From sequence record OL631481.1: a stretch of DNA of 64,000 bases; one strand, given 5' to 3'. Shown one piece after another: positions 2,771 through 38,390 of the stretch. The notes beneath the pieces were generated by a model. The model did not search any database. It was not told where the DNA came from and worked only from the letters and a program-made list of their open reading frames with translations. This DNA is from Escherichia phage ECML-183-2. The number at the start of each line of letters is the position of its first letter. Within the stretch, counting starts at the first letter, position 1. Position numbers and translations under genes: made by a program.

Positions 2771-2791
2771 TATATTAATCTCCTATTAAAA

Positions 2792-3190: not shown

Positions 3191-3209
3191 TTAATTTAAT
3201 CTCCTAAGA

Positions 3210-4325
3210 TTATTGTTTCTGGGCTTTTTTAAGTTCAGCAGCTTTCTGACTAATCAGTTCAGAAGAAGATTTAGCTACAGGTTGAGTATTGATCACATCA
3301 ACACCACGTTCTGTTCCAAATTCTTTCTTAACTGCGTCCACTTCTGCACGTGCTTTTTCGAATGCTTTGACGATAGTTTCAGCGATATCTTTATTGTCTA
3401 CCAGATATTTAACGAGAGCTTCAACTTTGTCTTCTTCTACGAAAGAATAGGATTTAACAACAGTTGTATATTCTTCTTCGATACGAGCTTGTTCAGCTTT
3501 ACGAAGTTCTTCTGCTTCCTGTTCTGCCTTAGCGATTTTTTCCTGTGCTTCAAGTTCTGCGGCTGCACGTGCATCTGCGGCTGCTTTTTCTACAGCTTCA
3601 GCGATCTGTGCTTTCATCAGTTCTTGGAATTCAGCAGATTTCAGGAATTCTTCTTTGTTGATATTTTCCAAAGGGGTTTCTCCTTTATTGATTCCAGTTG
3701 TGTTTGCAGATTTATCACCTGCGGGGTTAGCCTCTGCATCCACAGAGTTTGTATTAGCTTTAGCGTGAGCTTTCACTAAATAATCTTTAACTTGACTTTG
3801 TTTCAAGGAACTCTTAACGAGATTACTCAAAGCATCGTCTAAAACGTCCTCAAAGAAATCAATGGAGATCATTACATCACCATCAACAACTTGATAATCA
3901 GTAACACGAACAACAGGTTTAGCAACCTCTTCAACTTCAACATTCAGTCCGTCAACTTTAAAGCCAACAGAGAACATACCGTTATCTGAACAGAAAATTG
4001 CAACGTTCGCATCGAAGTCAGCATCAATAACGTAAACCCAATCCCAACCAGCTTCAAATTTTTCACGCACTTTTTCAGAAATGCGATCCATCACTTGTTG
4101 AATATAGCTTTTACGTAACTCTGTAACATCTTCTCCCATTTTAGTGAGAGCTTCTAACTTTTCAAAAGTTATGTCTGGAGATCCGTCTGACTTAAATAAA
4201 AGGGGGGTATTATAACCAGATGCCGCTCCACCTTGAAAATCAAAAGTGTAAGCAATATGAGCACCTAGTGACTCTTCCGTAGCTTTTCCTGAAAAGTCTA
4301 CGTTAGTTAAATATGTATTTGCCAC
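3210..4325 (-). CDS. scaffolding protein (putative)
   Basis: 371 aa; long Ala/Glu/Lys-rich coiled-coil segment (AEAVEKAAADARAAAELEAQEKIAKAEQEAEELRKAEQARIEEE); lies between portal and capsid. Confidence 0.5.
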   Translation of the reverse strand: MANTYLTNVDFSGKATEESLGAHIAYTFDFQGGAASGYNTPLLFKSDGSPDITFEKLEALTKMGEDVTELRKSYIQQVMDRISEKVREKFEAGWDWVYVIDADFDANVAIFCSDNGMFSVGFKVDGLNVEVEEVAKPVVRVTDYQVVDGDVMISIDFFEDVLDDALSNLVKSSLKQSQVKDYLVKAHAKANTNSVDAEANPAGDKSANTTGINKGETPLENINKEEFLKSAEFQELMKAQIAEAVEKAAADARAAAELEAQEKIAKAEQEAEELRKAEQARIEEEYTTVVKSYSFVEEDKVEALVKYLVDNKDIAETIVKAFEKARAEVDAVKKEFGTERGVDVINTQPVAKSSSELISQKAAELKKAQKQ

Positions 4326-4327
4326 GA

Positions 4328-4807
4328 TTAGTCCTTCTTGACTTTAACGCCCATTGCGCCTATACTCAAACCTTTAAGAACGCCGTCTTTACGAGCTTGA
4401 TATAATTCAGGGTCGTTGAATTGGATTTTAACGAGGGGAGTTCCTTCCACAACGAGTTCGTCACCAATGTAACAATCGACTTCATTTACCCAAGCTTTAA
4501 TTGGAGAAAACTTATCGGTGTTCTTCATGTGACCAAGATTACCACTAATGTTGGTAATATTCTCATTGAAGTTGTCAACCATCTTCCTGATTTCCAAATC
4601 AGACATGCGCTCTCCGTGGAGATCGTCTTCTTCAGGTGGACAATACAAGACCTCAATAACCTGCATCTTTTCTTCATCAAATTTATTTTGTTTGACTAGA
4701 GTTTCAGGTTTTTGAGATGGTATAGAATCTTGTTGGGATTCAGAATTCTCTTTAAAACCAGCGAAGGTTTTGAAGAGTTCCCACAGTGTATCTTTATTGA
4801 GTTCCAT
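4328..4807 (-). CDS. head morphogenesis protein (possible prohead protease)
   Basis: 159 aa ORF between portal and scaffold, the usual protease position; no catalytic motif recognised. Confidence 0.35.
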   Translation of the reverse strand: MELNKDTLWELFKTFAGFKENSESQQDSIPSQKPETLVKQNKFDEEKMQVIEVLYCPPEEDDLHGERMSDLEIRKMVDNFNENITNISGNLGHMKNTDKFSPIKAWVNEVDCYIGDELVVEGTPLVKIQFNDPELYQARKDGVLKGLSIGAMGVKVKKD

Positions 4808-4843
4808 TTGAAACCTCTTAAAAACAGATATCCCATAAATCTT

Positions 4844-4872
4844 AGTCTACAGGATATTTGTTGTTTTGTCAA
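4844..4872 (-). promoter_or_regulatory. sigma70-like promoter (TTGACA-N17-TAGACT) upstream of gene 4328-4807
   Basis: minus-strand TTGACA at 4872-4867, 17 nt spacer, -10-like hexamer at 4849-4844. Confidence 0.35.
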
Positions 4873-4900
4873 TAGAAAAATTAAAAAATATTAAATATTT

Positions 4901-6466
4901 TTAATTCGACAGGTTTTGTGCTGAAGGATCTAAAGCAGAAACAGTATCAGACGTTCCAGTTCCCGCTGTAGCTAAACCATCTCCTGATCGTGAAGTTTTG
5001 TCAGGCATATAGTTATCCATGAATTCAAAGAATTTCTCTTTATTGGCAACAATATCGTCAGGGATGCGATATTCAAAACCAATTTTTTCAAGGAACTCGT
5101 TAATAACTTCTGGGGTTAAAGGTATTGCACCAGAGGCTACCAACTGCTGAATAGCTTTAGCATTTACTTCAATATCAGGATCACCCATTTCACCACTGAC
5201 AAACTTAGGCATATCTTCATCAGAAAGGAAGATATTGTTTAGTCGTAGTGTTTGAGGGATCAGTTGAGAGTTTATAGCTTCTACAACAATATCTACATCT
5301 CGCTCAATAAAATGAGACAATAGTGTTTGTTTGTTGTCAGAAAGCGCAAAACTTCCTGCATCACCATCACCCATAATCAACACACCCGCACCAAAGCGGT
5401 TATAAATATCTAGCTTGCGTTGTTTGATTAGTGCTTGAGTGTCAAACTGTTTACCCGTGCCATCAACACCTTGGAATACAAGATCGTATTGACGCATCAC
5501 TGTGCCTTCATAAACGTCTGAAGGCAATACCATGTAGGCTTGCTCACCAGAGTGCAGGTTAGCGATGTTGGCTTGGAGAACTCGAAGAGATTGTGCTTCA
5601 TCCCCAGCAGGATCTAAAGATGCCCTGTTTAGAATGTCACTTGGAACCTTAAGAACTGGCATACCGCCTAAATCTTTAGATACCCCAATAACCTCAAATT
5701 CCTGAATAAGAGATTTTTCACGCCAGCTACGATATACAGCTAAAAGCGGACTAACTCCTAGTGGGTTATTCTCTGTAATGTTACTACCAACAAATAAAAC
5801 TTTACTGAAAGGAATTTCTTTAATACCAGTTTCTAAAGTTGTATTACCTGGAGCTAACATCGTATTGGTGATATTCTGGTTAACAGATAGAATAGAACGT
5901 CCGTCTGCCGAATATGTAAAAGGTTGAGCCATGTGAAGAGTGTCTTGTGGTCTAAAAGCCAGTTTGGTCAATCGCCAATACCCAAAGTAAGGACTTTTAG
6001 GATCTTCATCCAACTCATAAACTTTCTCTGCGAATGCAAAACCATATTGCTTATATGTCAAAAGTGATCTAACATATTGACGTAGAGGGGCTTGCATATT
6101 GCGTAACATGTAATCAATAAACTTAGCAGCTTTTCTTGACTTTGCCGAGTTTACATTGTATTTTATCTTGAAATCAAAGAATGCTCTATCTACAAAGATA
6201 TATGTAGCGTCAAGAGCAGTAGCTACATCAGGGTCTTCACCCATCTCTTTAAAAGTGCGAATACATTCTGGGAAACGAGTCTCATAAGGTTGCATGAAAT
6301 TCGTAAATGCTTTGATTGAGTTTAATCCGATCGTTCCTATTTCAGGTGACAGGAGTAACGTTTTCTCTTTCTCTGCCTCTTTTGTTGGAGAGAGAGCAGC
6401 TTTATTTGCAGCACCTTTGTCCCAGTATTCTGACTTTTTAGTGTACGTTCTTTTTCCTGTTGACAC
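4901..6466 (-). CDS. portal protein (putative)
   Basis: 521 aa ORF immediately downstream of the large terminase; size and position typical of portal. Confidence 0.55.
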   Translation of the reverse strand: MSTGKRTYTKKSEYWDKGAANKAALSPTKEAEKEKTLLLSPEIGTIGLNSIKAFTNFMQPYETRFPECIRTFKEMGEDPDVATALDATYIFVDRAFFDFKIKYNVNSAKSRKAAKFIDYMLRNMQAPLRQYVRSLLTYKQYGFAFAEKVYELDEDPKSPYFGYWRLTKLAFRPQDTLHMAQPFTYSADGRSILSVNQNITNTMLAPGNTTLETGIKEIPFSKVLFVGSNITENNPLGVSPLLAVYRSWREKSLIQEFEVIGVSKDLGGMPVLKVPSDILNRASLDPAGDEAQSLRVLQANIANLHSGEQAYMVLPSDVYEGTVMRQYDLVFQGVDGTGKQFDTQALIKQRKLDIYNRFGAGVLIMGDGDAGSFALSDNKQTLLSHFIERDVDIVVEAINSQLIPQTLRLNNIFLSDEDMPKFVSGEMGDPDIEVNAKAIQQLVASGAIPLTPEVINEFLEKIGFEYRIPDDIVANKEKFFEFMDNYMPDKTSRSGDGLATAGTGTSDTVSALDPSAQNLSN

Positions 6467-10145: not shown

Positions 10146-10224
10146 TGGAGGCGGGAATTGGATTTGAACCAATGATCTCCAGCATATGAAACTGGCGAGG
10201 ACGACCAGACTCCTCTATCCCGCT
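10146..10224 (-). tRNA. tRNA-Met(CAT)
   Basis: hand-folded cloverleaf: anticodon loop TTCATAT, T-arm ATTGG-TTCAAAT-CCAAT, encoded CCA; position 1-72 is an A-C mismatch. Confidence 0.6.
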
Positions 10225-10301
10225 ATTATGTATCCCGTGCTGGATTCGAACCAGCATCACAAAAATTGTGGATCTCTTATCCTGTAAGTCTAACGGGAAA
10301 C

Positions 10302-10375
10302 TGGTTGTTTCGACAAGAATCGAACTTGTGTCTCACGATTATCAGTCGTGGGTTCTACCATTGAACTACGAAACA
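10302..10375 (-). tRNA. tRNA-Ile(GAT)
   Basis: acceptor TGTTTCG/CGAAACA, anticodon stem CACGA/TCGTG with loop CTGATAA, T-loop TTCGATT, encoded CCA. Confidence 0.75.
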
Positions 10376-10438
10376 TTTAAAAGAATATCTCACGTCTGAT
10401 ACAGACTAACCTTTTGTCTGACGCATGAAATATTTAAT

Positions 10439-10515
10439 TGGTCGGAATTGCAGGATTCGAACCTGCGACCCTACGCTCCCAAAGCGTATGCTCTACCAAA
10501 CTGAGCTAAATTCCG
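10439..10515 (-). tRNA. tRNA-Pro(TGG)
   Basis: acceptor CGGAATT/AATTCCG, D-arm GCTC-AGTTTGGTA-GAGC, anticodon loop TTTGGGA, T-arm GCAGG-TTCGAAT-CCTGC, CCA. Confidence 0.8.
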
Positions 10516-10520
10516 TTATA

Positions 10521-10596
10521 TGGCTGGTCTGTCTGGATTTGAACCAAACCTACGACAGTCAAAGTGTCGTGTGCTACCGGACTACACTACAAACCA
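10521..10596 (-). tRNA. tRNA-Gln(TTG)
   Basis: acceptor TGGTTTG/CAGACCA, anticodon stem CGACA/TGTCG with loop CTTTGAC, T-loop TTCAAAT, CCA. Confidence 0.8.
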
Positions 10597-10694
10597 ATAA
10601 ATCATTTAATGAAGGGCAACCAGAAGAAGTGTGAGAGAAGGAGAAAACCATGAGTAAAAGAGAAAGTTTTCTGGCAACCCTTTATTAAATAATT

Positions 10695-10771
10695 TGGAGC
10701 GTTATATCGGATTCGAACCGATGCCACCGACTTGGAAGGACGGGATGCTGAACCGCTAACACTAATAACGC
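10695..10771 (-). tRNA. tRNA-Gly(TCC)
   Basis: acceptor GCGTTAT/ATAACGC, anticodon loop CTTCCAA (one stem mismatch), T-arm ATCGG-TTCGAAT-CCGAT, CCA. Confidence 0.65.
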
Positions 10772-10784
10772 TTTGTATATATTT

Positions 10785-10814
10785 ACTATACTACATTTTA
10801 CTATCGAATGTCAA
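10785..10814 (-). promoter_or_regulatory. sigma70-like promoter (TTGACA-N18-TATAGT) inside the tRNA cluster
   Basis: minus-strand TTGACA 10814-10809, 18 nt spacer, TATAGT 10790-10785; predicted start a few nt upstream of the tRNA-Gly 5' end. Confidence 0.5.
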
Positions 10815-11089
10815 TAGTTATTTAATAGGTGGGACAGTGACGAGTATCCCTTTGGGTGACTAGCCCTACGTTCGGTAAGCTAACTTAAAATAATACAAAA
10901 CCAAAGTCAAATATTATTCTTCGTTGCTGTCGATGGGAGAGCCGCTTCTTCTTTTGCCCCATCCAACCCTACTCCGGTCAAGTTTCAGGTAACTCTTTGT
11001 GTGATCAACACAATACTAAGAACACTGTCTTTCGAACAGACCTTGTGCACAGGATACGACGATCAATCACAGTGCCCTTAATGTTGTGT

Positions 11090-11164
11090 TGGTGCTCCCA
11101 CTCTGAATCGAACAGAGATCCACGGATTACAAAACCGTTGTAATAGCCATTATACTATAGGAGC
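11090..11164 (-). tRNA. tRNA-Thr(TGT)
   Basis: acceptor GCTCCTA/TGGGAGC, anticodon loop TTTGTAA, T-arm CTCTG-TTCGATT-CAGAG, CCA. Confidence 0.65.
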
Positions 11165-11255
11165 AAAGCTGGGACTCGGCAGGATTCGATACCTGCAATT
11201 CCAGAAGCCTCTTGGCGACTGGGGGGTTTACCTTAACTCTACAAGTCCATAATTC

Positions 11256-11341
11256 TGGCGATGAGTATAGGATTTGAACCTATATCGTTCTTTCGAACAC
11301 GGATTAACAGTCCGCCGCTTAAACCATTCAGCCAACTCATC
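11256..11341 (-). tRNA. tRNA with anticodon GTT (Asn-type) but type-II architecture
   Basis: acceptor GATGAGT/ACTCATC, anticodon stem GCGGA/TCCGT with loop CTGTTAA, extra variable hairpin GTTC-GAAA-GAAC, T-arm ATAGG-TTCAAAT-CCTAT, discriminator G, CCA. Confidence 0.5.
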
Positions 11342-11347
11342 TTAATT

Positions 11348-11435
11348 TGGTGGTGAGTGATGGAGTCGAACCACCCGAATCGCAATGATAACAGATTTAC
11401 AGTCTGCCCCGCTACCCCTACGGAATTAACTCACC
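11348..11435 (-). tRNA. tRNA-Tyr(GTA)
   Basis: acceptor GGTGAGT/ACTCACC, anticodon arm CAGA-CTGTAAA-TCTG, long variable arm, discriminator A, CCA. Confidence 0.8.
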
Positions 11436-11565
11436 TAAATGCTAATATTTAAATTCTTTTTAAAATAGCCAGTGTTCACACCACTAACTATGAGGTATCG
11501 GTAAAGTGGTTACCGCCACTTGCCGAAGATTTACTCTGCTAAAGTAAGCTATATTAAAAAGAACT

Positions 11566-11651
11566 TGGCGGTAGATGTAGGACTCGAACCTACACGCCGT
11601 TTCCGACTACAGTTTAGCAAACTGTCGTGGCTACCATTTCACCAATCTACC
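11566..11651 (-). tRNA. tRNA-Ser(GCT)
   Basis: acceptor GGTAGAT/ATCTACC, anticodon arm ACAGT-TTGCTAA-ACTGT, long variable arm, T-arm GTAGG-TTCGAGT-CCTAC, discriminator G, CCA. Confidence 0.8.
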
Positions 11652-11655
11652 AATC

Positions 11656-11746
11656 TGGCGGAAGGAGGGAGAGTCGAACTCCCAAGGCTCTTTCAAGCTC
11701 GGCGGTTTTCAAGACCGTTTTCGTCGCCACGTCGATTTGCCCTTCC
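11656..11746 (-). tRNA. tRNA-Ser(TGA)
   Basis: acceptor GGAAGGG/TCCTTCC, anticodon region ACGGTCTTGAAAACCGCC, long variable arm, T-arm GGGAG-TTCGACT-CTCCC, CCA. Confidence 0.8.
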
Positions 11747-11754
11747 ATACTTAT

Positions 11755-11784
11755 AATCTAACATAAAATAATGTTAGTTGTCAA
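11755..11784 (-). promoter_or_regulatory. sigma70-like promoter directly upstream of tRNA-Ser(TGA)
   Basis: minus-strand TTGACA 11784-11779 with a weak -10 about 17-18 nt downstream; tRNA 5' end at 11746. Confidence 0.35.
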
Positions 11785-11980
11785 TAGTTTTTTAAAACAT
11801 TTTACCATGAATGGTGACTCCACCAACCCCCGTTCTCAGCGAACGGTGCTCTTCGAGCATTTATGTCTTCTAATATAACCGTGGCCTTTGTTTATAATGT
11901 CTGACATACTTACCTCATTCTCTGCCACCATGATCAGTAGTGGGTTCAAATCACTTGAGCTAATTCATGTTAAAATGTTC

Positions 11981-12055
11981 TGGTGTCTTTACAAGGAATC
12001 GAACCTTGACTAAGAGTTTAGAAGACTCCTGTGCTATCCATTACACCATAAAGAC
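11981..12055 (-). tRNA. tRNA-Arg(TCT)
   Basis: acceptor GTCTTTA/TAAAGAC, D-arm GTGT-AATGGATA-GCAC, anticodon loop CTTCTAA, T-arm CAAGG-TTCGATT-CCTTG, CCA. Confidence 0.75.
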
Positions 12056-12057
12056 GT

Positions 12058-12132
12058 TGGTGGCCCTGGCTGGTTTCGATCCAGCTACCTATCGGTTATG
12101 AGCCGACAGCTCTCCCATTGAGCTACAGGGCC
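12058..12132 (-). tRNA. tRNA with CAT anticodon (Ile2-lysidine type or elongator Met)
   Basis: acceptor GGCCCTG/CAGGGCC, D-arm GCTC-AATGGGA-GAGC, anticodon loop CTCATAA, T-arm GCTGG-ATCGAAA-CCAGC, CCA; overall resembles bacterial tRNA-Ile2. Confidence 0.7.
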
Positions 12133-26415: not shown

Positions 26416-27024
26416 ATGCAGATAGTATGTGATTGGGATTTAGTTGTGGCTCCGTTAGATGTTGCTTGGTTAGAATGGTTGAATAAGATTAGTGGCCTTG
26501 GTGTTAAAATCGACACATTCACAAAAAATGCAGATTATGATCTTACCAACTATTTTCCTGGTTTCAGGGAAGAGTTCAACATAGATCCTTACGGATTTCT
26601 GGATAATCCTCATCTCTACGATACTATGGGTTTTGTTCCAGGTATGCCAGATTTCTTAAAGTATGTTTCAAGGAAAGGTAGCAATCTTTTGATCGCGAGT
26701 GTGACAAAAGGTGGTCACTTAAGTTCTAAACATAAACATGTTTTAAGAACATTAGATACGATTGATTTTAGCAAAGGGTCTGGTAACGGCTTTTTTGCTA
26801 CGAAAGAAAAATACTTATTACCTTGTGATATAGCAATAGATGACAGGGCTGATAACCTATTATATTTTCCAGATGAAGTAGTTAAAATATATTTTAATAC
26901 ACCTTATAAAGATAACCATCTAGAAGAACTAAAGAAAAAACCAAATGTTGTGATCACAGGTTTAGAAGATCAGTGGCTAACATGTTTGGATGTTTTTAAC
27001 ACTTTGAACAATTTTAAAAACTAA
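26416..27024 (+). CDS. HAD-superfamily 5'(3')-deoxyribonucleotidase-like protein
   Basis: N-terminal DxD motif (VCDWDLVVAP) typical of HAD phosphatases. Confidence 0.45.
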   Translation: MQIVCDWDLVVAPLDVAWLEWLNKISGLGVKIDTFTKNADYDLTNYFPGFREEFNIDPYGFLDNPHLYDTMGFVPGMPDFLKYVSRKGSNLLIASVTKGGHLSSKHKHVLRTLDTIDFSKGSGNGFFATKEKYLLPCDIAIDDRADNLLYFPDEVVKIYFNTPYKDNHLEELKKKPNVVITGLEDQWLTCLDVFNTLNNFKN

Positions 27025-27033
27025 GGAGAAAAA

Positions 27034-28032
27034 ATGACAAAACAGATTTCGGCTAGTATTATTGCACATTCCATCACTGAAGACGGAAAAGAGATTGTAA
27101 CTTTCGAACTTGAATATCCACGTATTATTCATTCAGAACTGATGACTCACCGCCTGTTCAGTCGTAACGCTGCTTCTAGCCGTGCTATACCTGTTAAAAC
27201 ACTGATCGAAATGGTGCGAAATCAGCCTGCTCGTCCTTATCGTTTTGGGGCTAACCAACCTGGTATGCAGGATAAAGGTGTTGATCATGACGCGCTTATT
27301 GATGCAGGTTATACTGCTCAAGAGTGGTGGGATCTTGCCGCGCTTAGTGCAGCACGTTTCGCAGAAGAATTCTCTTTGGCAGGGTACCACAAACAAGTTG
27401 CAAACCGTCTTCTGGAACCTTTCCAACGAATTAAAACAGTTCTGACAGCAACAGAATATGAAAATTTCTGGTGGCTACGTGATGACAAAGAAGCCGATCC
27501 TACTATCGAAGCTTTGGCTAAAGAGATGCACAGAGAGTATGAAGGATCTACACCAGAAGTGCTGAAACCAGGGCAATGGCACACACCTTATGTAGACCAT
27601 TTCTATGATAATATTGGCACAGAAGGTGACGATCATTTTGTTTTTGGTGGATACTACGTTCAAGATGAATCTGGAGAAGTTGTTGTGCTTACTTTGGAAG
27701 AAGCCAAAGCTATTTCAGCTTCGTGTTGTGCACAGGTTAGCTATCGTCGTTTAAATGCAACTAAAGATAAAGCTTTAGATATCTATGGTCGTTTGCTAAC
27801 TGGGCGCAAGGTTCATGCTTCTCCGTTTGAACATCAAGCCACCCCAATGCAAGAAACATGCGAACAATATGGAGAGAACTGTTTTGAAGATTTGTTTATC
27901 AATGCTCCTTGGGATTTTAACTCTTGGGAACCAGGTATTACCCATGTAGATCGTAATGGTAAGTTTTGGTCTGGCAATTTCAAAGGTTGGATTCAACATC
28001 GTCAACTTTTAACAAATCATACTAAATGGTGA
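27034..28032 (+). CDS. thyX: FAD-dependent thymidylate synthase ThyX-like
   Basis: ThyX-like signature HRLFSRNAASSR (RHR-x7-S type); 332 aa. Confidence 0.55.
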   Translation: MTKQISASIIAHSITEDGKEIVTFELEYPRIIHSELMTHRLFSRNAASSRAIPVKTLIEMVRNQPARPYRFGANQPGMQDKGVDHDALIDAGYTAQEWWDLAALSAARFAEEFSLAGYHKQVANRLLEPFQRIKTVLTATEYENFWWLRDDKEADPTIEALAKEMHREYEGSTPEVLKPGQWHTPYVDHFYDNIGTEGDDHFVFGGYYVQDESGEVVVLTLEEAKAISASCCAQVSYRRLNATKDKALDIYGRLLTGRKVHASPFEHQATPMQETCEQYGENCFEDLFINAPWDFNSWEPGITHVDRNGKFWSGNFKGWIQHRQLLTNHTKW

Positions 28033-31063: not shown

Positions 31064-31720
31064 ATGAAGAAGGGTAAACGTAAAGTTACCGTTCTCACAG
31101 AGAGGGGAGAAATCCCCTTGATTGTGGATGTTGAACGTAGATTGTGGGAAGGTGGTGTTATCAATGGAAAAAGGGTTAATACATTCATAGATCCTTCCTA
31201 TGCAGCTTGGAAAGGCATGTTTAATCGTGCATATAGTATGGAAAACATTAGACCAGGTTATAAAGATGTTACCGTGTGTGATGCTTGGTTCACCTTTTCA
31301 AACTTTGATAACTGGTATCAAGAACATAACGTGGAAGGCTTTGTTTTAGATAAAGATCTTGTTCTTGAAGGAAATACTGTTTACTGTCCTGAATATTGTA
31401 GGTTTGTTCCTCCTTACATAAATACACTCTTAAGTTATGCTAAGAGGTATGAAAGAAAATACTTACTAGGAGCACATGTTAGGAAAGATGGTAAGATTTA
31501 TGCCAAAGCTTCTGGGAGCAAAGGTAAGCATTTAGGTTACTTCGCTACAGAGGAAGAGGCACACTTCGCTTGGCTAAAGGATAAAGCTAAGTCAATCAGG
31601 GAAACAGCGGATCGTTACAAAGAGGAAGAACATTTTTATCCAGAGGTGTACAACACTCTTGTAAACAAGGCGGATTTCTATTGGCACCTGGCGGAAACAA
31701 AAACAGTATTTCGAGGCTAA
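31064..31720 (+). CDS. AP2-domain DNA-binding protein, probable free-standing homing endonuclease
   Basis: C-terminal GKHLGYFATEEEAHFAW AP2-like segment; inserted between nrdA and nrdB. Confidence 0.45.
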   Translation: MKKGKRKVTVLTERGEIPLIVDVERRLWEGGVINGKRVNTFIDPSYAAWKGMFNRAYSMENIRPGYKDVTVCDAWFTFSNFDNWYQEHNVEGFVLDKDLVLEGNTVYCPEYCRFVPPYINTLLSYAKRYERKYLLGAHVRKDGKIYAKASGSKGKHLGYFATEEEAHFAWLKDKAKSIRETADRYKEEEHFYPEVYNTLVNKADFYWHLAETKTVFRG

Positions 31721-31727
31721 ATATAAA

Positions 31728-31748
31728 GGGGCTTCGGCCCCTTTTTTA
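31728..31748 (+). terminator. hairpin GGGGCTTCGGCCCC plus T-run (copy 1 of 3)
   Basis: perfect 5 bp GC stem with TTCG tetraloop followed by TTTTTT. Confidence 0.55.
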
Positions 31749-31761
31749 TTGAGGAGAGATT

Positions 31762-32100
31762 ATGAGCACACTTATAGTTTTACCTGGAGTAACCCCAATC
31801 TACCGTCCTGGGTTTAAGCCTTTGTTGATTCCCCCTGAAGATTTTACCCCTGTTTGGTGTCACCATTATCTCGGCGGACTTCAAATAGCTAATATCCAGA
31901 TTTGGGAATCTTTTTATCCAGAAGCTACGGCTTACGCAATAACAAGGGCAAGAAGTGAAGAAACAGTGACTGTTATACTCGGTAGAAGCGTATGGCAAGC
32001 ATTAGAAGGTTTCTACCGGACTAATGGTGTTGAGGAACATGATATTTTAAACTTAAAAGGTTTTTGTGAAATAGTGGAGGATTTAAATGGCAGCAATTAA
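31762..32100 (+). CDS. hypothetical protein
   Basis: 112 aa ORF between the endonuclease gene and nrdB. Confidence 0.45.
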   Translation: MSTLIVLPGVTPIYRPGFKPLLIPPEDFTPVWCHHYLGGLQIANIQIWESFYPEATAYAITRARSEETVTVILGRSVWQALEGFYRTNGVEEHDILNLKGFCEIVEDLNGSN

Positions 32101-33175
32101 TTTACATAACGAAGTTTACAAAACAGGAAAATATCCAGTATTTTTAGGGGAACAATTAGGGATTTTTGATTCTGTTAACGTAACTTATCCAGAAATGCAT
32201 AAACTCTACAAACTTCAAAAAGCACAAGATTGGGATGAGAATGAAGTTAATCTGGATCAGACACGTAAAGATTTCGTAGCTTGTTCTAAAAACAACTATG
32301 ATGTTATGATTAAAAACTTATCGTTCCAATGGGAAAATGATTCTCTTGCAAAATCAATCATCACTTTGTTCTCTCCATTCTTGAGTAACAATGAAGCCTG
32401 TGCTATGATGATGAAGCAGAGTGAAATGGAAGTTCTCCATGCGTTAACGTATTCTGAAATAATCCGTCAATGTACTCCAGATCCAATTGAAGTCATCAAT
32501 CAGATTATGATTAATGATAAAATTTTCAATCGTATGGGTATCATTGCTGATATCATGGGTCAGTTGGAAGAAGCTGGTCATAAGTATGCTCTAGGATTGA
32601 TTGAAGCTAACGATGAACTTCGCTTGCTGATTCTTAAAGGGATGGTAGCCCTGATTGGATTAGAAGGTATTCAGTTTATATCTTCCTTCTCTGCTACTTT
32701 TGCTATGGCAGAACAACAACTGTTTGTTGGGGCTTGTAAACTGATCCAGAAAATTATGCTAGATGAAATCTTGCATGTTAAGATGGACTATGCTGTAATT
32801 GATGCATTGATGCATGACCCAATTTGGCGTAAAATTTACGAAGATAATATTGAAGAGTTGACTTTGATCCTCGACACTGTTGTTGAACAAGAGGAACAGT
32901 GGTGTGACTACCTGTTTAGTGAAGGTCGTTTTATTGTAGGTCTTAACGCCGAATTGTCTAAACAGTGGGTTTATTTCAATGCTGCTCCTATTTATCGTCG
33001 ATTGAAAATGAAAGCCAAGTTTAAAGCACCTAAACATAGTCCTTTAGCTTGGATGGAAAAATGGTTGAATCCTGATTTGATTCAGTCAGCAGCCCAAGAG
33101 ATTCAGTTAACTAATTACAAATTGAATTCAGCTAACAAAGATCTCTCTGATGATGAGGAGCTTGACTTCGAATGA
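32087..33175 (+). CDS. nrdB: ribonucleotide reductase small subunit (NrdB)
   Basis: 362 aa; two ExxH ferritin-like motifs (EVLH, EILH); adjacent to nrdA. Confidence 0.75.
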   Translation: MAAINLHNEVYKTGKYPVFLGEQLGIFDSVNVTYPEMHKLYKLQKAQDWDENEVNLDQTRKDFVACSKNNYDVMIKNLSFQWENDSLAKSIITLFSPFLSNNEACAMMMKQSEMEVLHALTYSEIIRQCTPDPIEVINQIMINDKIFNRMGIIADIMGQLEEAGHKYALGLIEANDELRLLILKGMVALIGLEGIQFISSFSATFAMAEQQLFVGACKLIQKIMLDEILHVKMDYAVIDALMHDPIWRKIYEDNIEELTLILDTVVEQEEQWCDYLFSEGRFIVGLNAELSKQWVYFNAAPIYRRLKMKAKFKAPKHSPLAWMEKWLNPDLIQSAAQEIQLTNYKLNSANKDLSDDEELDFE

Positions 33176-33381
33176 TTTTGAAATGTGTTGGTATAATCGA
33201 CACATTCAAAGACGTTTTTGATAAAGGGGCTTCTTATGAAGCCTCTGAAATGAAGAATGGTTTTTGTGATGTATTCGGTAAACGCCTGAAGAAAAATGGC
33301 GATCCTTGGCTAGGAGTTATGTCTTGTGGTCATATTATTGTAAATGGTGTTGCCAAATTTGAAATAATTAAGGAGGAATAG
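33172..33381 (+). CDS. hypothetical protein
   Basis: 69 aa, ATGA-coupled to nrdB. Confidence 0.4.
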   Translation: MILKCVGIIDTFKDVFDKGASYEASEMKNGFCDVFGKRLKKNGDPWLGVMSCGHIIVNGVAKFEIIKEE

Positions 33382-33533
33382 TGGCTGAAAAACTTATTTT
33401 TTGTCCTGTGTGCGGTGGGACGGGACAGATGGAAGTGGAAATTATGGTAACATTTCCTTGCCTGAATTGTCATGGTGAGGGACGAGTAGTAGTCTTTGAA
33501 AAAGAAGGGTTGGAGGTAGAAGATGGAGAGTGA
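33381..33533 (+). CDS. small zinc-ribbon protein (50 aa)
   Basis: GTG after AGGAGG; CPVCGGTG ... CLNCHGEG. Confidence 0.35.
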   Translation: MAEKLIFCPVCGGTGQMEVEIMVTFPCLNCHGEGRVVVFEKEGLEVEDGE

Positions 33534-33687
33534 AAAAGAGTATGTTCGCATTCCACGAGAATTAACAGATCACATTGCAGAAGCAATAGCTTTCGAAGCT
33601 AGATGTTGTGGAGGCATTGCTTACGATATTTATGAAGCAATTATTAAAGCTGCTCAAGAAGAGGAGGAGATGAAAAATGGGTATTGA
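33523..33687 (+). CDS. small hypothetical protein (54 aa)
   Basis: ATG with upstream GGAGG; below ORF-track cutoff. Confidence 0.3.
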   Translation: MESEKEYVRIPRELTDHIAEAIAFEARCCGGIAYDIYEAIIKAAQEEEEMKNGY

Positions 33688-34003
33688 TATCGAATGGCGT
33701 ATGTTACAGGGTGCACCTTTTAATAAGTGGGAAGAGGCTGTAGGAGAAGATCCTAGAATTGAAGAAGAATTTGATGGAGATTTTAACTGGTTCTTACAAG
33801 AAGGTCTTGACTTAAGTCGAATCTCTCCTTTCTACGATGCTGATGAGTCTTATTGCATATATGGTATTTATTTAGAAGGCGGAGAAGGAAGCGTAGCTGT
33901 AGATCTTGAGCAAGTAAATGAGAATGCAAAAGAAGCCTATGCAGAGCTACTTGAAAAATATAACATTAAAACGGAAACTATTATTTCTCAACATGTCTGG
34001 TAA
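33677..34003 (+). CDS. hypothetical protein
   Basis: 108 aa, acidic. Confidence 0.45.
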   Translation: MGIDIEWRMLQGAPFNKWEEAVGEDPRIEEEFDGDFNWFLQEGLDLSRISPFYDADESYCIYGIYLEGGEGSVAVDLEQVNENAKEAYAELLEKYNIKTETIISQHVW

Positions 34004-34012
34004 GGAGAGAAA

Positions 34013-34579
34013 ATGAAAGTAGAAAAAACAAAAATTGAAGGTGCGGTAATTATCAAACCAGACGTTTATAAAGATGACCGTGGTTTCTTTTTAGAAACAT
34101 ATAATGAACAAAAATACGAAGATATCATTGGTAGACAAACTTTCGTTCAAGATAACATGTCTAAATCAAACTTCGGTGTTTTGCGAGGAATGCACTTTCA
34201 AACAAATAATCCGCAAGGTAAGCTTGTTCGTTGTGTAAGTGGTGAAGTATTGGATTTCGCTGTAGACTTACGTAAAGATAGTCCTACTTACGGTGCTTGG
34301 GACGGTGTTGTTCTTCGTGCACGACACCATACGCAGTTTTGGCTTCCACCTGGTTTGGCACATGGTTTTATAGTTTTGAGTATGGATGCTATCTTTGAAT
34401 ACAAATGCACAACTCCATACGACCCTTCTAGTGAAGAAAGTTTACGTTGGGATGATCCTGATATAGGGATCGATTGGGGCTTCGATATGATTTTTGATGA
34501 AGGTTTTAAACCTATCCTATCAACAAAAGATGCAATGGCTAAATCTTTTCAACAGTTACGTAGCGAGGGTGTATGCTAA
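34013..34579 (+). CDS. rmlC: dTDP-4-dehydrorhamnose 3,5-epimerase (RmlC-like cupin)
   Basis: DDRGFF, VLRGMHFQ, GKLVRCVSGEV, LPPGLAHGF segments match the RmlC family. Confidence 0.75.
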   Translation: MKVEKTKIEGAVIIKPDVYKDDRGFFLETYNEQKYEDIIGRQTFVQDNMSKSNFGVLRGMHFQTNNPQGKLVRCVSGEVLDFAVDLRKDSPTYGAWDGVVLRARHHTQFWLPPGLAHGFIVLSMDAIFEYKCTTPYDPSSEESLRWDDPDIGIDWGFDMIFDEGFKPILSTKDAMAKSFQQLRSEGVC

Positions 34580-35415
34580 CATATCTGGTATTGGGTGGTA
34601 ATGGACAACTGGGACAAGCTTTACGTAAAGTTGCCCCTGCAAATGTATCTTTAATTTATCCTAAAGAACGTGTAGATATTACAAATTTTGAAGCTGTGCG
34701 AAACGCTATTGTTGAAGATTATGTAGATGGTGTTATTAATTGCGCCGCTTATACGGCTGTAGATAAAGCCGAACAAGATTTTGCTACTGCTTTGGCTGTT
34801 AATGCTTATGGCCCTGCAAATATTGCGGCAGTGTGCAGCAAACTTAAAATTGATTTTGTGCATATTTCCACAGACTATATTTTTAATTATTCTCATCCTA
34901 TTTTTGAAGACACTGCACCTAACCCAATAAACAATTATGGGTATACGAAAGAACTTGGTGAAAAAATGGTGCGAGGAGTTAACCCAAATGCATATATTAT
35001 TCGAACAGCCTCGGTATATAGCGAATTTGGAAATAACTTTCTAAAAACCATGTTGTCTCGCTATAATGATGGACAACGTGATTTTATTATTGTTGCTGAT
35101 CAGTTCTCTTGTCCAACATATGCTCCAGATTTAGCAGAAGCTATTTTTGAAGTATTAAAAACAGGTTGGTCAAGGTCTGTTAAGACTTACCATTTTGCAG
35201 GAAGCCATCTTATTTCTTGGGCGGAGTTTGCGGAAAAGATCTTGACACAGATGCCAGAACCTGTTAAGATATCGGCGGTATCAGCTTCAACCTATAATGC
35301 TCCAGCAGCACGTCCGGTGAAGTCACAACTAATAACCAGTCACTATCTTACAAAATCAGATTTAAATAAAGGTATTGAACAGTCTTTAGCAGTATTACTT
35401 AATAAGGAGAGGTAA
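34573..35415 (+). CDS. rmlD: dTDP-4-dehydrorhamnose reductase (RmlD-like)
   Basis: N-terminal Rossmann GGNGQLG; 280 aa; overlaps rmlC by 7 nt. Confidence 0.65.
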   Translation: MLTYLVLGGNGQLGQALRKVAPANVSLIYPKERVDITNFEAVRNAIVEDYVDGVINCAAYTAVDKAEQDFATALAVNAYGPANIAAVCSKLKIDFVHISTDYIFNYSHPIFEDTAPNPINNYGYTKELGEKMVRGVNPNAYIIRTASVYSEFGNNFLKTMLSRYNDGQRDFIIVADQFSCPTYAPDLAEAIFEVLKTGWSRSVKTYHFAGSHLISWAEFAEKILTQMPEPVKISAVSASTYNAPAARPVKSQLITSHYLTKSDLNKGIEQSLAVLLNKER

Positions 35416-35675
35416 TGGAATTTGTAATTTTTGGTAAACCTAACTGTCAATTTTGCGAAATGTCAAAACAACTATTAACCATGCGCAATAAACAGTTTGA
35501 ATATTTAAGTCTTGATCAAGACTATGATTTAGAATCAATGACTAAAACAGTTGTTGATCTTACCGGAGTTCCTCCACGCACATTTCCACAAATTCTGTCT
35601 GAAGTGAACGGGGAGGTAACATACGTAGGCGGTTTTACCGAACTGCGTGATCTCATGGCTCAAATTGCGGAGTAA
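35415..35675 (+). CDS. glutaredoxin-like protein (NrdH/NrdC-type redoxin)
   Basis: 86 aa with CQFC active-site motif near N-terminus. Confidence 0.6.
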   Translation: MEFVIFGKPNCQFCEMSKQLLTMRNKQFEYLSLDQDYDLESMTKTVVDLTGVPPRTFPQILSEVNGEVTYVGGFTELRDLMAQIAE

Positions 35676-35680
35676 CAATT

Positions 35681-35830
35681 ATGAAAAGTAAACAGAAACG
35701 TAAGATCTTTTCTCGTGCTTTGGCAAATGAGCTGAAGTCCAACATAAAGAAAACGAAACCAAAACGTGAAACTTCTCCAGAACATCTGTTGTTTAATGAG
35801 TTGGATCACGGAGTAGGAGACGACGAATAG
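35681..35830 (+). CDS. small basic protein (49 aa)
   Basis: below ORF-track cutoff; weak RBS. Confidence 0.25.
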   Translation: MKSKQKRKIFSRALANELKSNIKKTKPKRETSPEHLLFNELDHGVGDDE

Positions 35831-35837
35831 GAAGTAA

Positions 35838-36338
35838 ATGGCTAAAGTAGTAGATGAGTTTGATATGCTACGAGTCGATGAAGGACTGAAGCTTACTGTT
35901 TATCAAGATCATCTTGGTTATTGGACAGTTGGCATAGGACACCTTCTGACTAAAATAAAAGATAAAGCAAAGGCTATTCAAATCTTAGATAATCTCCTTG
36001 GTCGTAAGACCAATGGAGTTATCACAGAAAAAGAAGCCCGTCAAATCTTTGCTGACGATGTTGCAAAAGTGAAGAGAGACATAAAAAACAGTGCTATCTT
36101 ATCACCAATCTATGATAAGGTGAGTGATACTCGTAAATTGGGAATAATCAACATGGTTTTCCAGTTGGGGTTAAAAGGTGCTGAAGGGTTTAAAAATAGC
36201 TTGACTTTAATCAGCAATGCATATTATACTCAAGCAGGTAAAAACATGCGTAAAAGCCGATGGTATAGCCAGACGCCAAACCGTGCTGAACGAGTAATTA
36301 AAGTTCTGACTTCTGGAACTTTAGATGCTTACAACTAA
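35838..36338 (+). CDS. T4-type lysozyme (GH24 muramidase)
   Basis: EGLKLTVYQD ... GYWTVGIGHL matches the T4 lysozyme catalytic region. Confidence 0.75.
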   Translation: MAKVVDEFDMLRVDEGLKLTVYQDHLGYWTVGIGHLLTKIKDKAKAIQILDNLLGRKTNGVITEKEARQIFADDVAKVKRDIKNSAILSPIYDKVSDTRKLGIINMVFQLGLKGAEGFKNSLTLISNAYYTQAGKNMRKSRWYSQTPNRAERVIKVLTSGTLDAYN

Positions 36339-36342
36339 TAAA

Positions 36343-36360
36343 GGGGCTTCGGCCCCTTCT
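36343..36360 (+). terminator. hairpin GGGGCTTCGGCCCC (copy 2 of 3)
   Basis: identical stem-loop; weak T-tract, so may be an attenuator or processing site. Confidence 0.4.
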
Positions 36361-36375
36361 AAAAGGAGTGCTACT

Positions 36376-37134
36376 ATGGGAAATAAAACCGCAGCTAAAA
36401 CACAACGGCAGAAACTGGCTAATTCAGCAAAGATTGAAAGCCGTTATGCAGCAAAAGCGGTAGGTAATGACGATTACCGTTTAGATGAATTTATGCCTGA
36501 AGGGGACCAAAATAAGATTGTTCAAAGCATGATTTGGAATGATCTGACTGTTGTAAATGCTCCGGCAGGGACTGGTAAAACCTCTGTTGCTTTATGGAAA
36601 GCTTTGCAGATGCTTCGTTCAGGAGACTTCCGTAAACTACTTTTTATCAAGAACCCTACTGAAGTCGGAGATGACCAGATTGGTTTCTTGTCTGGGGATA
36701 AAACAGATAAACTAGCAGCACACTATGAATCTACAAAACGTATTTTCCAGCAATTCATGACAGCCAACAAATTGGAAAACGATATTGGATCAGGTAAGAT
36801 CGAATTGAATATTCCTAACTATTTGTTGGGGGCTACCCTGGATAATACAATCGTCATTATTGACGAAGCACAACTTATGTCAACAGAAACACTTAAACTT
36901 CTTATTGAACGTGCAGGTATTAATACGCATGTTATTGTATTAGGCGATGTTCGCCAGACATATGCAATTAAAAAACGTAGCAATGGTCTGCATCAAATTT
37001 TGGAACTTTTATATCCAGAAAATGAAGAAGGTGTTCGTGAGCCAATTGTAGATTTTATTGGATACGTTGAACTGACAACGGACGATAATAAACGTGGACG
37101 TTTGTCTAAACTGATTACTGAAGTGTTTATTTAA
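36376..37134 (+). CDS. phoH: PhoH-like ATPase
   Basis: Walker A APAGTGKTS; start moved to ATG after AAAAGGAG. Confidence 0.7.
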   Translation: MGNKTAAKTQRQKLANSAKIESRYAAKAVGNDDYRLDEFMPEGDQNKIVQSMIWNDLTVVNAPAGTGKTSVALWKALQMLRSGDFRKLLFIKNPTEVGDDQIGFLSGDKTDKLAAHYESTKRIFQQFMTANKLENDIGSGKIELNIPNYLLGATLDNTIVIIDEAQLMSTETLKLLIERAGINTHVIVLGDVRQTYAIKKRSNGLHQILELLYPENEEGVREPIVDFIGYVELTTDDNKRGRLSKLITEVFI

Positions 37135-37166
37135 TAATGTGGCAGGGAAGCCATTTATAAGGAGGA

Positions 37167-37670
37167 TTGATGGGTGTAGCAACAATAGCTATCGGAAGAA
37201 GCGGTATAGATGAGTGCTATCAAACGGGACTCGTAAAACCTAACGAATTTCGTCAAATTTGTGTAAACCATATTGAAAAAGAGATTGCTCTTACTTTAGA
37301 GAATATGACCCTCCGAGATAAACTGGAAATGTTTAAATGTTGGTGTCTAGGAGAAGATTGGCTTTTAAACCATTTTCAAGAACTTTCTGATAGTAAAGAA
37401 AGCTTGTTTGATTGTATAATAGGAATAGCTGGCTCCGATCCTAGCCTTCTGCACATAACAGAAGAAGAGGCGAAGTTACTGTTCTTAAGTAATTTGTTTA
37501 ATAAGAAAGCACTGCTTGTTCGTGATTGCAGTGATCTTCTTAATAACCCGCTCGCAACGTCTGATCAAATTTTTGTTGACAAAGAGACACTACGTGCGAT
37601 AGAATACATCTGCAAATATGTGAATGGCGGGAAAGCGGTTCTTAAAACATTAACAGAGGAGGAAGAATAG
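37167..37670 (+). CDS. hypothetical protein
   Basis: 167 aa ORF immediately upstream of the HslV-like gene. Confidence 0.45.
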   Translation: MMGVATIAIGRSGIDECYQTGLVKPNEFRQICVNHIEKEIALTLENMTLRDKLEMFKCWCLGEDWLLNHFQELSDSKESLFDCIIGIAGSDPSLLHITEEEAKLLFLSNLFNKKALLVRDCSDLLNNPLATSDQIFVDKETLRAIEYICKYVNGGKAVLKTLTEEEE

Positions 37671-38362
37671 TGACGACAATTATTGCAACCAAAAATAAGA
37701 TTTTGAGTGACGGTAAGGTAACTTTTGGTGGACGTGTAGATTCTATTAATTTCAAAAAGGTCCGAAAAATTGGAGATTACCTTGTAGGTGGTGCTGGTCG
37801 TCTGACCTCCGTGCTTTCTTTCTTTCAATGGTTTGAACAAAATCTACAGTGCGAAGCAGCACGTGATGCTGTCCCTGGTTTGATGATTCACTCTGATCCA
37901 GATAAAGAAGATGAAGAGTTTATTGCACTTGTTGTTCATCCAGACGGACGTATTTTCCTGCACGAAGGTAACAACCCAACACGTGCATATCCGATTGATG
38001 AAGAATATTATGCAGTAGGAAGTGGGTCAGACTTTGCTTTAGCTGCTCTTGATGCAGGGGCAACACCAGAACAGGCTATGGAAGTAGCTAAAAAGCGAGA
38101 TGCTTTTTCTGGTGGTGAAACATTTATTGAAGAACAAGACGAGATTATTGAATTAACAGATGATGATTTAGAAAACTTCTCCAAAGAAGAATTGATCAAT
38201 CTTTTGAAATTCGGTAATCCCTACGGTGAAGAAGAACCTCGTAACGTGGCAGGTAACGAGGCGGATACTGAAGAAAAATCTGTTGCAGAAAACAACTTGA
38301 CTTCTAAATCTGAAAATATTAATCTCGTAAATGTGGCGGATTTCGAAGGAACCGCTATTTAA
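37670..38362 (+). CDS. HslV-like Ntn-hydrolase peptidase with acidic C-terminal extension
   Basis: MTTIIATKN N-terminus (Thr after Met), KVRK, GGAG, AVGSGSDFALAALDAG core similar to HslV; about 80 aa acidic tail. Confidence 0.55.
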   Translation: MTTIIATKNKILSDGKVTFGGRVDSINFKKVRKIGDYLVGGAGRLTSVLSFFQWFEQNLQCEAARDAVPGLMIHSDPDKEDEEFIALVVHPDGRIFLHEGNNPTRAYPIDEEYYAVGSGSDFALAALDAGATPEQAMEVAKKRDAFSGGETFIEEQDEIIELTDDDLENFSKEELINLLKFGNPYGEEEPRNVAGNEADTEEKSVAENNLTSKSENINLVNVADFEGTAI

Positions 38363-38367
38363 CAAAC

Positions 38368-38390
38368 TGCCCCTTCGGGGGCATTTCTTA
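38368..38390 (+). terminator. hairpin TGCCCC-TTCG-GGGGCA followed by a U-rich tail
   Basis: read directly. Confidence 0.45.

Follow-up and report, generated by a model that had tools for sequence, protein, structure and literature searches.

The rmlC-rmlD pair of Escherichia phage ECML-183-2 is a deletion derivative of the rmlBACD cassette of Stephanstirmvirinae

Phages of the subfamily Stephanstirmvirinae, including phAPEC8, ESCO13, and phi92 (gp064–067), carry an rmlB-rmlA-rmlC-rmlD cassette that was worded a 'complete dTDP-rhamnose pathway' (dTDP, deoxythymidine diphosphate) by Olsen et al. 2020, who called its location 'peculiar' and suggested the rhamnosylation of hydroxymethylated nucleotides. 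The absence of rmlA and rmlB from one of these phages, ESCO37, was remarked on by Nicolas et al. 2023. Here, we describe the corresponding locus of Escherichia phage ECML-183-2 (sequence record OL631481.1), of which a stretch of 64,000 nucleotides, called the window, was analyzed. The locus has the same position, neighbors, rmlC, and rmlD as the four-gene cassette, but is without rmlB and rmlA, owing to a 1,876-bp deletion between two ribosome-binding sites. The two genes and the junction are located as follows:

34004–34012, plus strand: deletion junction and ribosome-binding site GGAGAGAAA, placed by comparison with ESCO13 and phAPEC8-type sequences
34013–34579, plus strand: rmlC, predicted dTDP-4-dehydrorhamnose 3,5-epimerase of 188 residues (TIGR01221, PF00908, PDB: 1dzr)
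34573–35415, plus strand: rmlD, predicted dTDP-4-dehydrorhamnose reductase of 280 residues (TIGR01214, PF04321, PDB: 3sc6)

An earlier reading of the letters of the window, referred to here as the original prediction, missed that the pair is a deletion derivative of a conserved and annotated rmlBACD cassette and not an unusual stand-alone pair. The explanation that we favor, with a probability of roughly 60%, is that rmlC and rmlD are functional genes left behind by the deletion, that their substrate is provided by the host, and that the resulting dTDP-L-rhamnose is used by phage glycosyltransferases with a non-DNA acceptor.

Dozens of genomes from Phapecoctavirus (phAPEC8-like, Stephanstirmvirinae) are 98–99% identical to the region, and no record matches it exactly. 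In most of these relatives, the window aligns as two pieces with an extra 1,876 bp between them. The gene order in ESCO13 is an open reading frame (ORF) of 108 residues, rmlB, rmlA, rmlC, rmlD, and the glutaredoxin-like gene grx, and the RmlC and RmlD proteins of the window are 100% and 99.3% identical to those of ESCO13. The arrangement in Mt1B1_P17 is that of the window, with no rmlB or rmlA. Phage phi92, from the sister genus Justusliebigvirus, has the order nrdA, HNH endonuclease, nrdB, small ORFs, rmlB-rmlA-rmlC-rmlD, grx, lysozyme, and phoH, and its Rml proteins are 63, 71, 62, and 55% identical to those of Phapecoctavirus, the values for RmlC and RmlD being 62% and 55%, respectively. 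Because the four genes of phi92 occupy the same site and are comparably diverged, the four-gene cassette is ancestral to the subfamily and the deletion in the window is derived. The common ancestor of Phapecoctavirus and phi92-like phages probably carried rmlB-rmlA-rmlC-rmlD between nrdB and grx. A two-gene ancestral state with a later insertion of rmlBA was rejected, since this site holds the full set of four genes in both phi92 and phiWec179, and the phi92 proteins are comparably diverged. Regain of rmlBA by recombination does occur, as a laboratory recombinant of ESCO37 and ESCO5 (REC) carries rmlA and rmlB (Nicolas et al. 2023). A scan of IMG/VR with RmlC gave only two loci and no further information. 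The host labels look doubtful for the records named Campylobacter phage (B15, A110a, A145, and A150) and Acinetobacter phage vB_AbaM_ABPW7, which have about 98% identity to, or synteny with, Stephanstirmvirinae of E. coli.

The junction in the window reads TAA-GGAGA-GAAA-ATG at positions 34001–34015. In four-gene genomes, TAAGGAGAACTGATG precedes rmlB and GCGGAG(A/G)GAAAATG precedes rmlC. The two Shine-Dalgarno sequences share GGAGA, and the breakpoint therefore lies inside a 5-bp GGAGA microhomology. The absent 1,876 bp correspond exactly to rmlB and rmlA, the ribosome-binding site of rmlB is fused to that of rmlC, and rmlC is now at the translation start position once used by rmlB. The probable course of events is that the deletion between the two Shine-Dalgarno sequences removed rmlB and rmlA, and rmlCD were kept.

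A 151-bp query spanning the junction was compared with 63 Phapecoctavirus records, with RefSeq duplicates removed for the counts of distinct genomes. The query aligns without a gap in 21 records, which represent 17 of approximately 51 distinct genomes. In the other 42 of the 63 records (approximately 34 distinct genomes), the alignment ends at window position 34004, and rmlB-rmlA are located upstream of rmlC, as in ESCO13. About one-third of sequenced phapecoctaviruses thus carry the rmlB and rmlA deletion. ESCO37, Mt1B1_P17, ZCKP1, nepoznato, and anhysbys, as well as iGC_PHA_EC001, 536P1, SF1-1, WPEC1, and others, have the same junction and gene content as the window, and the junction is identical in all ten two-gene genomes sampled (the window and nine others). 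There was no apparent link between the two-gene or four-gene state and the isolation host; both forms have been isolated on K-12 MG1655.

The flanks of the junction are mosaic. Across rmlC-rmlD-grx, the window differs from the four-gene phage ESCO13 at 8 of 1,663 sites and from other two-gene phages at 29–39 sites, so that its rmlCD haplotype, unlike that of the other two-gene phages, is the one found in ESCO13. Over the 200 bp that precede the junction, the window differs by 1–3 sites from several two-gene phages and by 10 from ESCO13; this comparison used a summary of distances, and the upstream region of WPEC1 is unrelated. In Mt1B1_P17 and 536P1, the deletion is on an ESCO13-like upstream haplotype. 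The presence of the deletion allele on several backgrounds, comprising at least two upstream and several downstream haplotypes, indicates that it was spread by recombination or arose more than once at this microhomology. One deletion event spread by recombination fits the identical junctions, and repeated deletion at the 5-bp microhomology is likewise possible. In phiWec179 (positions 2125–5400), RmlB and RmlA are 94% and 97% identical to those of ESCO13, but RmlC and RmlD only 64% and 66%, and the break in identity is positioned exactly at the ribosome-binding site between rmlA and rmlC, which is the boundary of the deletion in the window. The cassette is, judging from this mosaicism, apparently composed of two exchangeable modules, rmlBA and rmlCD. 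In WPEC1 (positions 1–1360), unrelated small genes replace nrdB and its neighbors upstream of the 108-residue ORF, by a rearrangement or replacement beside the rml locus.

RmlC matches the equivalog model TIGR01221 of NCBIfam over residues 2–181 of 188 (224.3 bits, cut-off 155.75) and PF00908 of Pfam (223.7 bits, E = 1.4e-66, cut-off 27). RmlD exceeds the cut-off of the equivalog model TIGR01214 by a narrow margin (238.1 bits, cut-off 224.05), and matches PF04321 with 247 bits (E = 2.6e-73, cut-off 27). In PHROGs, RmlC is assigned to dTDP-4-dehydrorhamnose 3,5-epimerase and RmlD to nucleotide-sugar epimerase. RmlC aligns along its full length with RmlC from S. enterica (PDB: 1dzr, E = 4e-56). 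Residues His61, Lys70, His117, Tyr130, and Asp173 align with His63, Lys73, His120, Tyr133, and Asp170 of that structure, and the His/Asp dyad, lysine, and tyrosine of the S. enterica enzyme are all kept. RmlD belongs to the short type of about 280 residues, which is nearest to Firmicute enzymes, and its best solved structure is RmlD from B. anthracis (PDB: 3sc6, E = 4e-44). It retains the dinucleotide-binding motif G8xxG11xxG14 and the triad Thr100/Tyr122xxxLys126 of short-chain dehydrogenases/reductases (SDR). The sequence identity to the K-12 enzymes of E. coli is 47% for RmlC (RfbC) and 33% for RmlD (RfbD), which argues that these are old phage genes and not recent captures from the host.

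The assignment of the two predicted enzymes is as firm as sequence analysis permits, and it agrees with the original prediction. The profile searches, which the prediction had named as a route to refutation through other cupin or SDR families, assigned both proteins to the Rml families above the equivalog cut-offs and with the catalytic residues kept. The motifs DDRGFF, VLRGMHFQ, GKLVRCV, and GLAHGF on which it had relied are all present in the 188-residue product, and both ORFs are on the plus strand where it had placed them. The virulent-phage setting and the position among nucleotide-metabolism genes had also been recognized correctly. RmlC and RmlD appear to be functional genes of a virulent Phapecoctavirus, with predicted dTDP-L-rhamnose chemistry.

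A different end product would result if the RmlD-like reductase added hydride to the opposite face and so made dTDP-6-deoxy-L-talose, or if the pair acted on another nucleotide-linked 4-keto-6-deoxy sugar. 6-deoxytalose synthases are homologous to RmlD, the score of RmlD is just 14 bits over the equivalog cut-off, and RmlD, at 33% identity to RfbD of E. coli, falls below the cut-off of the enterobacterial RfbD sub-model PRK09987 (120 bits, cut-off 308). However, the best family and solved-structure matches of RmlD are all annotated as dTDP-4-dehydrorhamnose reductases, RmlC is 47% identical to RfbC and nearly 70 bits over its cut-off, and the relatives link the pair with RmlA and RmlB in the usual dTDP-rhamnose set. 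We consider another product highly improbable, and dTDP-L-rhamnose remains the expected one.

Each of the 19 rmlC and rmlD ORFs sampled is full length. Overall, the ratio of non-synonymous to synonymous polymorphism (pN/pS) is 0.024 in rmlC and 0.145 in rmlD; it is 0.033 and 0.18 among two-gene genomes, and 0.018 and 0.10 among four-gene genomes. No signs of decay were seen in the two genes, which appear to be under strong purifying selection. These values bear on whether rmlCD became roleless after the loss of rmlA and rmlB, as non-functional leftovers in which decay is still to come. The incomplete phage pathway, the slightly higher ratios in two-gene genomes, and possible independent damage to rmlB in KKP 3954 and to rmlA in AV125 would be consistent with such leftovers. 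Against this, all ten sampled two-gene genomes keep both ORFs at full length with intact catalytic residues, and pN/pS is far under 1. The deletion is in-register, preserving the spacing of the ribosome-binding site and leaving rmlC and rmlD translationally coupled, the allele is present in 17 distinct genomes from several continents, and the missing substrate is supplied by the host in 98% of E. coli genomes. That the pair is a non-functional remnant is very unlikely, and we treat rmlCD as a retained functional module.

Two other isolates differ in the first half of the cassette. In KKP 3954, a 2-bp insertion at about position 115 frameshifts rmlB, which is annotated as two coding sequences, and the tblastn alignment of RmlA from AV125 is in two pieces. 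Either the first-half genes were inactivated independently in these isolates, or the sequences may contain errors.

A tblastn search of the 64 kb of the window with phage RmlA and RmlB did not find either gene, as the original prediction had said; the only similarity was the generic one between the SDR proteins RmlB and RmlD. Nor was a homolog of RmlA or RmlB found in the two-gene relative iGC_PHA_EC001, whose complete genome has 148,445 bp. A complete phage-encoded dTDP-L-rhamnose pathway, including rmlA and rmlB, is thus present neither in the window nor in iGC_PHA_EC001, and the absence of both genes from a complete two-gene genome implies that dTDP-4-keto-6-deoxy-D-glucose must be host-derived. 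E. coli K-12 has two routes to this compound: the O-antigen cluster contains rfbA/rfbB, and the cluster for the enterobacterial common antigen (ECA) contains rffH/rffG. The rffG-rffH genes are present at an identity of at least 95% in 5,306 of 5,426 complete E. coli genomes (98%). The host source of the substrate that had been proposed in the original prediction is supported both by the complete relative without rmlA and rmlB and by this near-universal distribution. In contrast, rfbC was detected by blastn in 2,348 of the 5,426 genomes (43%, a lower bound).

We infer that the half of the cassette that was lost duplicates what nearly every host can already do, whereas the half that was kept contributes steps apparently absent from many hosts. 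The deletion may be tolerated because the first two steps are duplicated in this way, and the continued purifying selection on rmlCD may result from the last two steps not being so duplicated. In the proposed mechanism, host RffH and RffG, together with RmlA and RmlB in rhamnose-containing serotypes, would supply dTDP-4-keto-6-deoxy-D-glucose. Phage RmlC would epimerize C3 and C5, and phage RmlD would reduce C4 using NAD(P)H, yielding dTDP-L-rhamnose.

Another reading is that the sugar-nucleotide flux of the host is manipulated, rather than a donor supplied. RmlCD might drain dTDP-4-keto-6-deoxyglucose from ECA and O-antigen synthesis, dTDP-L-rhamnose might inhibit RmlA/RffH and so spare deoxythymidine triphosphate (dTTP), or surface glycans might be altered. 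RmlA is known to be inhibited by dTDP-L-rhamnose. The genes share a block with nrdAB, thyX, and grx, and the substrate is the ECA branch point, whose user gene wecE adjoins rffG-rffH in the host. K-12 is able to add rhamnose to its lipopolysaccharide core, making such glycoforms a candidate target. However, RmlA and RmlB belong to the cassette in its ancestral form, which is also the commoner one, and are under purifying selection there; they would raise the use of dTTP and the flux into the pathway, which is the opposite of sparing dTTP. The change in the dTTP pool that had been suggested by the original prediction fits poorly with such an ancestral cassette holding the dTTP-consuming RmlA. 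The remodeling of host surface polysaccharide that it had also suggested is a possibility. Manipulation of host flux also leaves unexplained the co-inheritance of four phage glycosyltransferases with the rml genes, and no rhamnosyltransferase for host lipid-linked acceptors was identified. We regard it as unlikely, and the provision of dTDP-L-rhamnose to phage enzymes as the better account of the locus.

The candidate enzymes are encoded outside the window. The original prediction had proposed a search of the rest of the genome for rmlA, rmlB, and glycosyltransferases, and in the complete two-gene relative iGC_PHA_EC001 this gave no rmlA or rmlB, but four glycosyltransferase genes. The four genes are consecutive (record positions 87,378–90,522; L023, 37378–40522) and located beside primase/helicase and DNA polymerase genes. 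Two of the products, GT1 and GT2, are GT-B-like paralogs of each other, GT3 is GT-A-like, and GT4 belongs to a fourth phage glycosyltransferase family. GT3, GT1, and RmlC each match 64 records at an identity of at least 95%, from the same set of phages, and additionally phi92-like and related phages; no rV5-like phage with GT3, GT1, or RmlC was among the matches listed. The model of GT3 (predicted local distance difference test score 88.8) has a GT-A fold with an invariant DDD motif. In a fold search, its nearest solved structures were glycan- or protein-directed enzymes, including the Listeria rhamnosyltransferase RmlT, dTDP-bound SpsA, and A064R of chlorovirus PBCV-1. Sequence searches of the PDB with GT1, GT3, and GT4 gave nothing meaningful.

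The glycosyltransferase cluster is the likely user of dTDP-L-rhamnose, as indicated by its co-occurrence with rml. In the last and weakest step of the mechanism, the four glycosyltransferases would transfer rhamnose from dTDP-L-rhamnose to a non-DNA acceptor, most plausibly virion proteins. The specific proposal that Stephanstirmvirinae make a rhamnose glycan on virion proteins by means of the four co-inherited glycosyltransferases, with two-gene variants fed by the host ECA precursor, is tentative, and we consider it possible but doubtful as it stands.

The position of the rml genes among genes of nucleotide metabolism, and of the glycosyltransferase cluster beside primase/helicase and DNA polymerase genes, would fit a model in which the phage glycosyltransferases place rhamnose from dTDP-L-rhamnose on modified bases, in a T4-like manner, as protection against host nucleases. 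The glucosylation of hydroxymethylcytosine in T-even phages is likewise performed by phage glycosyltransferases encoded among replication and nucleotide-metabolism genes. T4 uses uridine diphosphate glucose of the host and is not known to encode a sugar-nucleotide pathway. GT3 has a weak similarity to the TET-associated glycosyltransferase family (PF20691, E = 1e-3, below the cut-off) and to a PHROG of beta-glucosyl-hydroxymethylcytosine alpha-glucosyltransferase (E = 8e-6). Olsen et al. 2020 put forward such a hypermodification of the DNA, and Vitt 2024 took up the idea again.

However, HincII cut the DNA of all Phapecoctavirus isolates, with four rml genes (ESCO5, ESCO13, and ESCO25) or two (ESCO37), as well as that of all phi92-like isolates, and only three Tevenvirinae were resistant (Nicolas et al. 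2023). Phi92-like phages with the same rml genes are exceptionally sensitive to restriction-modification (Maffei et al. 2021). The only thymidylate-synthase-like gene of the window encodes ThyX (PF02511), and there is no ThyA-type hydroxymethylase in it. Neither a hydroxymethylase nor a TET/JBP gene is annotated in iGC_PHA_EC001, in which many genes are still hypothetical. The similarity of GT3 to DNA glycosyltransferases is confined to the generic nucleotide-binding region of the GT-A fold (residues 32–70), and its best structural matches are directed to glycans and proteins. The window and its relatives differ from T-even phages in having no hydroxymethylase found, in the presence of ThyX, in DNA that is cut by HincII, and in the restriction-modification sensitivity of the phi92-like sister genus. 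Modification of the DNA is quite improbable. Of the uses that the original prediction had offered for a sugar donor, glycosylation of the DNA is accordingly disfavored, whereas a virion or other non-DNA target is plausible in view of the glycosyltransferase cluster that co-occurs with rml.

Several points weigh against the explanation by host-fed RmlCD and phage glycosyltransferases. The 14-bit margin of RmlD makes the C4-epimeric product dTDP-6-deoxy-L-talose possible. Much of the polymorphism in rmlCD probably predates the deletion, and pN/pS within two-gene genomes is therefore a weak test of constraint. Where present, rmlA and rmlB have pN/pS values of 0.12 and 0.10, so they are not simply dispensable in every setting. 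The number of host genomes with rfbC is a minimum, since alleles with less than about 65% identity escape blastn. ECML-183-2 probably has the glycosyltransferase cluster, as all 64 Phapecoctavirus records have it. The link between rml and the glycosyltransferases rests on co-occurrence in one subfamily, which shared ancestry alone could produce, and the donor specificity of glycosyltransferases cannot be read from sequence or fold.

The pair is part of a close-packed block of co-directional genes, which consists of an ORF of 112 residues, nrdB, small ORFs, rmlC, rmlD, grx, lysozyme, phoH, and an HslV-like peptidase gene. The features around the pair are:

31745–38367, plus strand: close-packed co-directional block with rmlCD, delimited by hairpins at both ends and the layout of ORFs
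32087–33175, plus strand: nrdB, small subunit of class Ia ribonucleotide reductase (PF00268, E = 6e-33)
33172–34003, plus strand: four small conserved ORFs of 69, 50, 54, and 108 residues (PHROG families of unknown function, annotated in relatives)
33381–33533, plus strand: the 50-residue ORF, with a zinc-ribbon-like CxxC...CxxC motif (weak, sub-threshold matches to DnaJ_CXXCXGXG and Anti-TRAP)
35415–35675, plus strand: glutaredoxin-like gene grx (PF00462, 38 bits, cut-off 22.9)

The start of rmlD overlaps the stop of rmlC by 7 nucleotides, and the ATG of grx overlaps the stop of rmlD by 1 nucleotide (TAATG). The original prediction had positioned the pair between nrdB and the glutaredoxin gene; both genes are there, but the four small ORFs separate nrdB from rmlC. 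Terminator-like hairpins at 31725–31744 and 38368–38383 flank the block, and none was found on the plus strand within 31745–38367. A scan for sigma-70 promoters gave 45 candidates, compared with 36.8 ± 7 in shuffled sequence, and no promoter is claimed.

The 50-residue ORF is conserved in relatives, and its phi92 counterpart is annotated as a 'putative DnaJ chaperone'. Between nrdA and nrdB, there is an ORF for an HNH endonuclease of 218 residues (31064–31720, plus strand), which matches phrog_953 (E = 3e-57) and has no Pfam match. It is missing from ESCO13, corresponding to a 668-bp indel, and present in iGC_PHA_EC001 and phi92 (gp074). It has the appearance of a mobile insertion of a homing endonuclease that carries a strong terminator of its own (the hairpin at 31725–31744). 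ThyX (27034–28032, plus strand) is unusually long, with 332 residues, and divergent; its Thy1 match of 33.5 bits covers only profile positions 59–190. An NT5C-like deoxynucleotidase gene (26416–27024, plus strand) adjoins thyX, upstream of nrdA. Ten tRNA genes (two for Met and one each for Ile, Pro, Gln, Gly, Thr, Asn, Ser, and Arg) are located at 10146–12132 on the minus strand of the window.

Since public genomes already include annotations of the genes and of the two-gene variant, and publications mention them, the finding of the pair is not new. New here are the exact deletion, the behavior of the cassette as two modules, the reasoning from host redundancy, the glycosyltransferase cluster that is inherited along with rml, and the case against DNA modification. 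The candidates for phage therapy with broad host ranges include phapecoctaviruses and phi92-like phages, whose rhamnose genes have been loosely assumed in the literature to modify DNA, a question that is reframed here. If the virion does carry rhamnose, this could affect the immune recognition, stability, and adsorption of therapeutic phages. Well-studied therapy phages of E. coli would then have a glycan coat, and the natural two-gene and four-gene variants would provide a ready test of dependence on host sugar nucleotides.

Compared with known systems, RmlC and RmlD of the window belong to the same families as the bacterial enzymes (PDB: 1dzr, 3sc6, and the S. enterica RmlD 1kbz), with full-length alignments and the same catalytic residues. 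The same chemistry is expected, namely 3,5-epimerization followed by NAD(P)H-dependent 4-reduction to dTDP-L-rhamnose. Unlike the bacterial genes, which are located in O-antigen or capsule loci, the phage pair is located among nrd and grx genes of a virulent phage. The Che8-type mycobacteriophage glycosyltransferases are a virion glycosylation system, and A064R belongs to that of PBCV-1. The likeness of the predicted Stephanstirmvirinae enzymes to these systems lies in the general GT-A fold. In Stephanstirmvirinae, virus-encoded glycosyltransferases are co-inherited with sugar-nucleotide genes, and in PBCV-1, A064R is accompanied by virus-encoded sugar-nucleotide synthesis.

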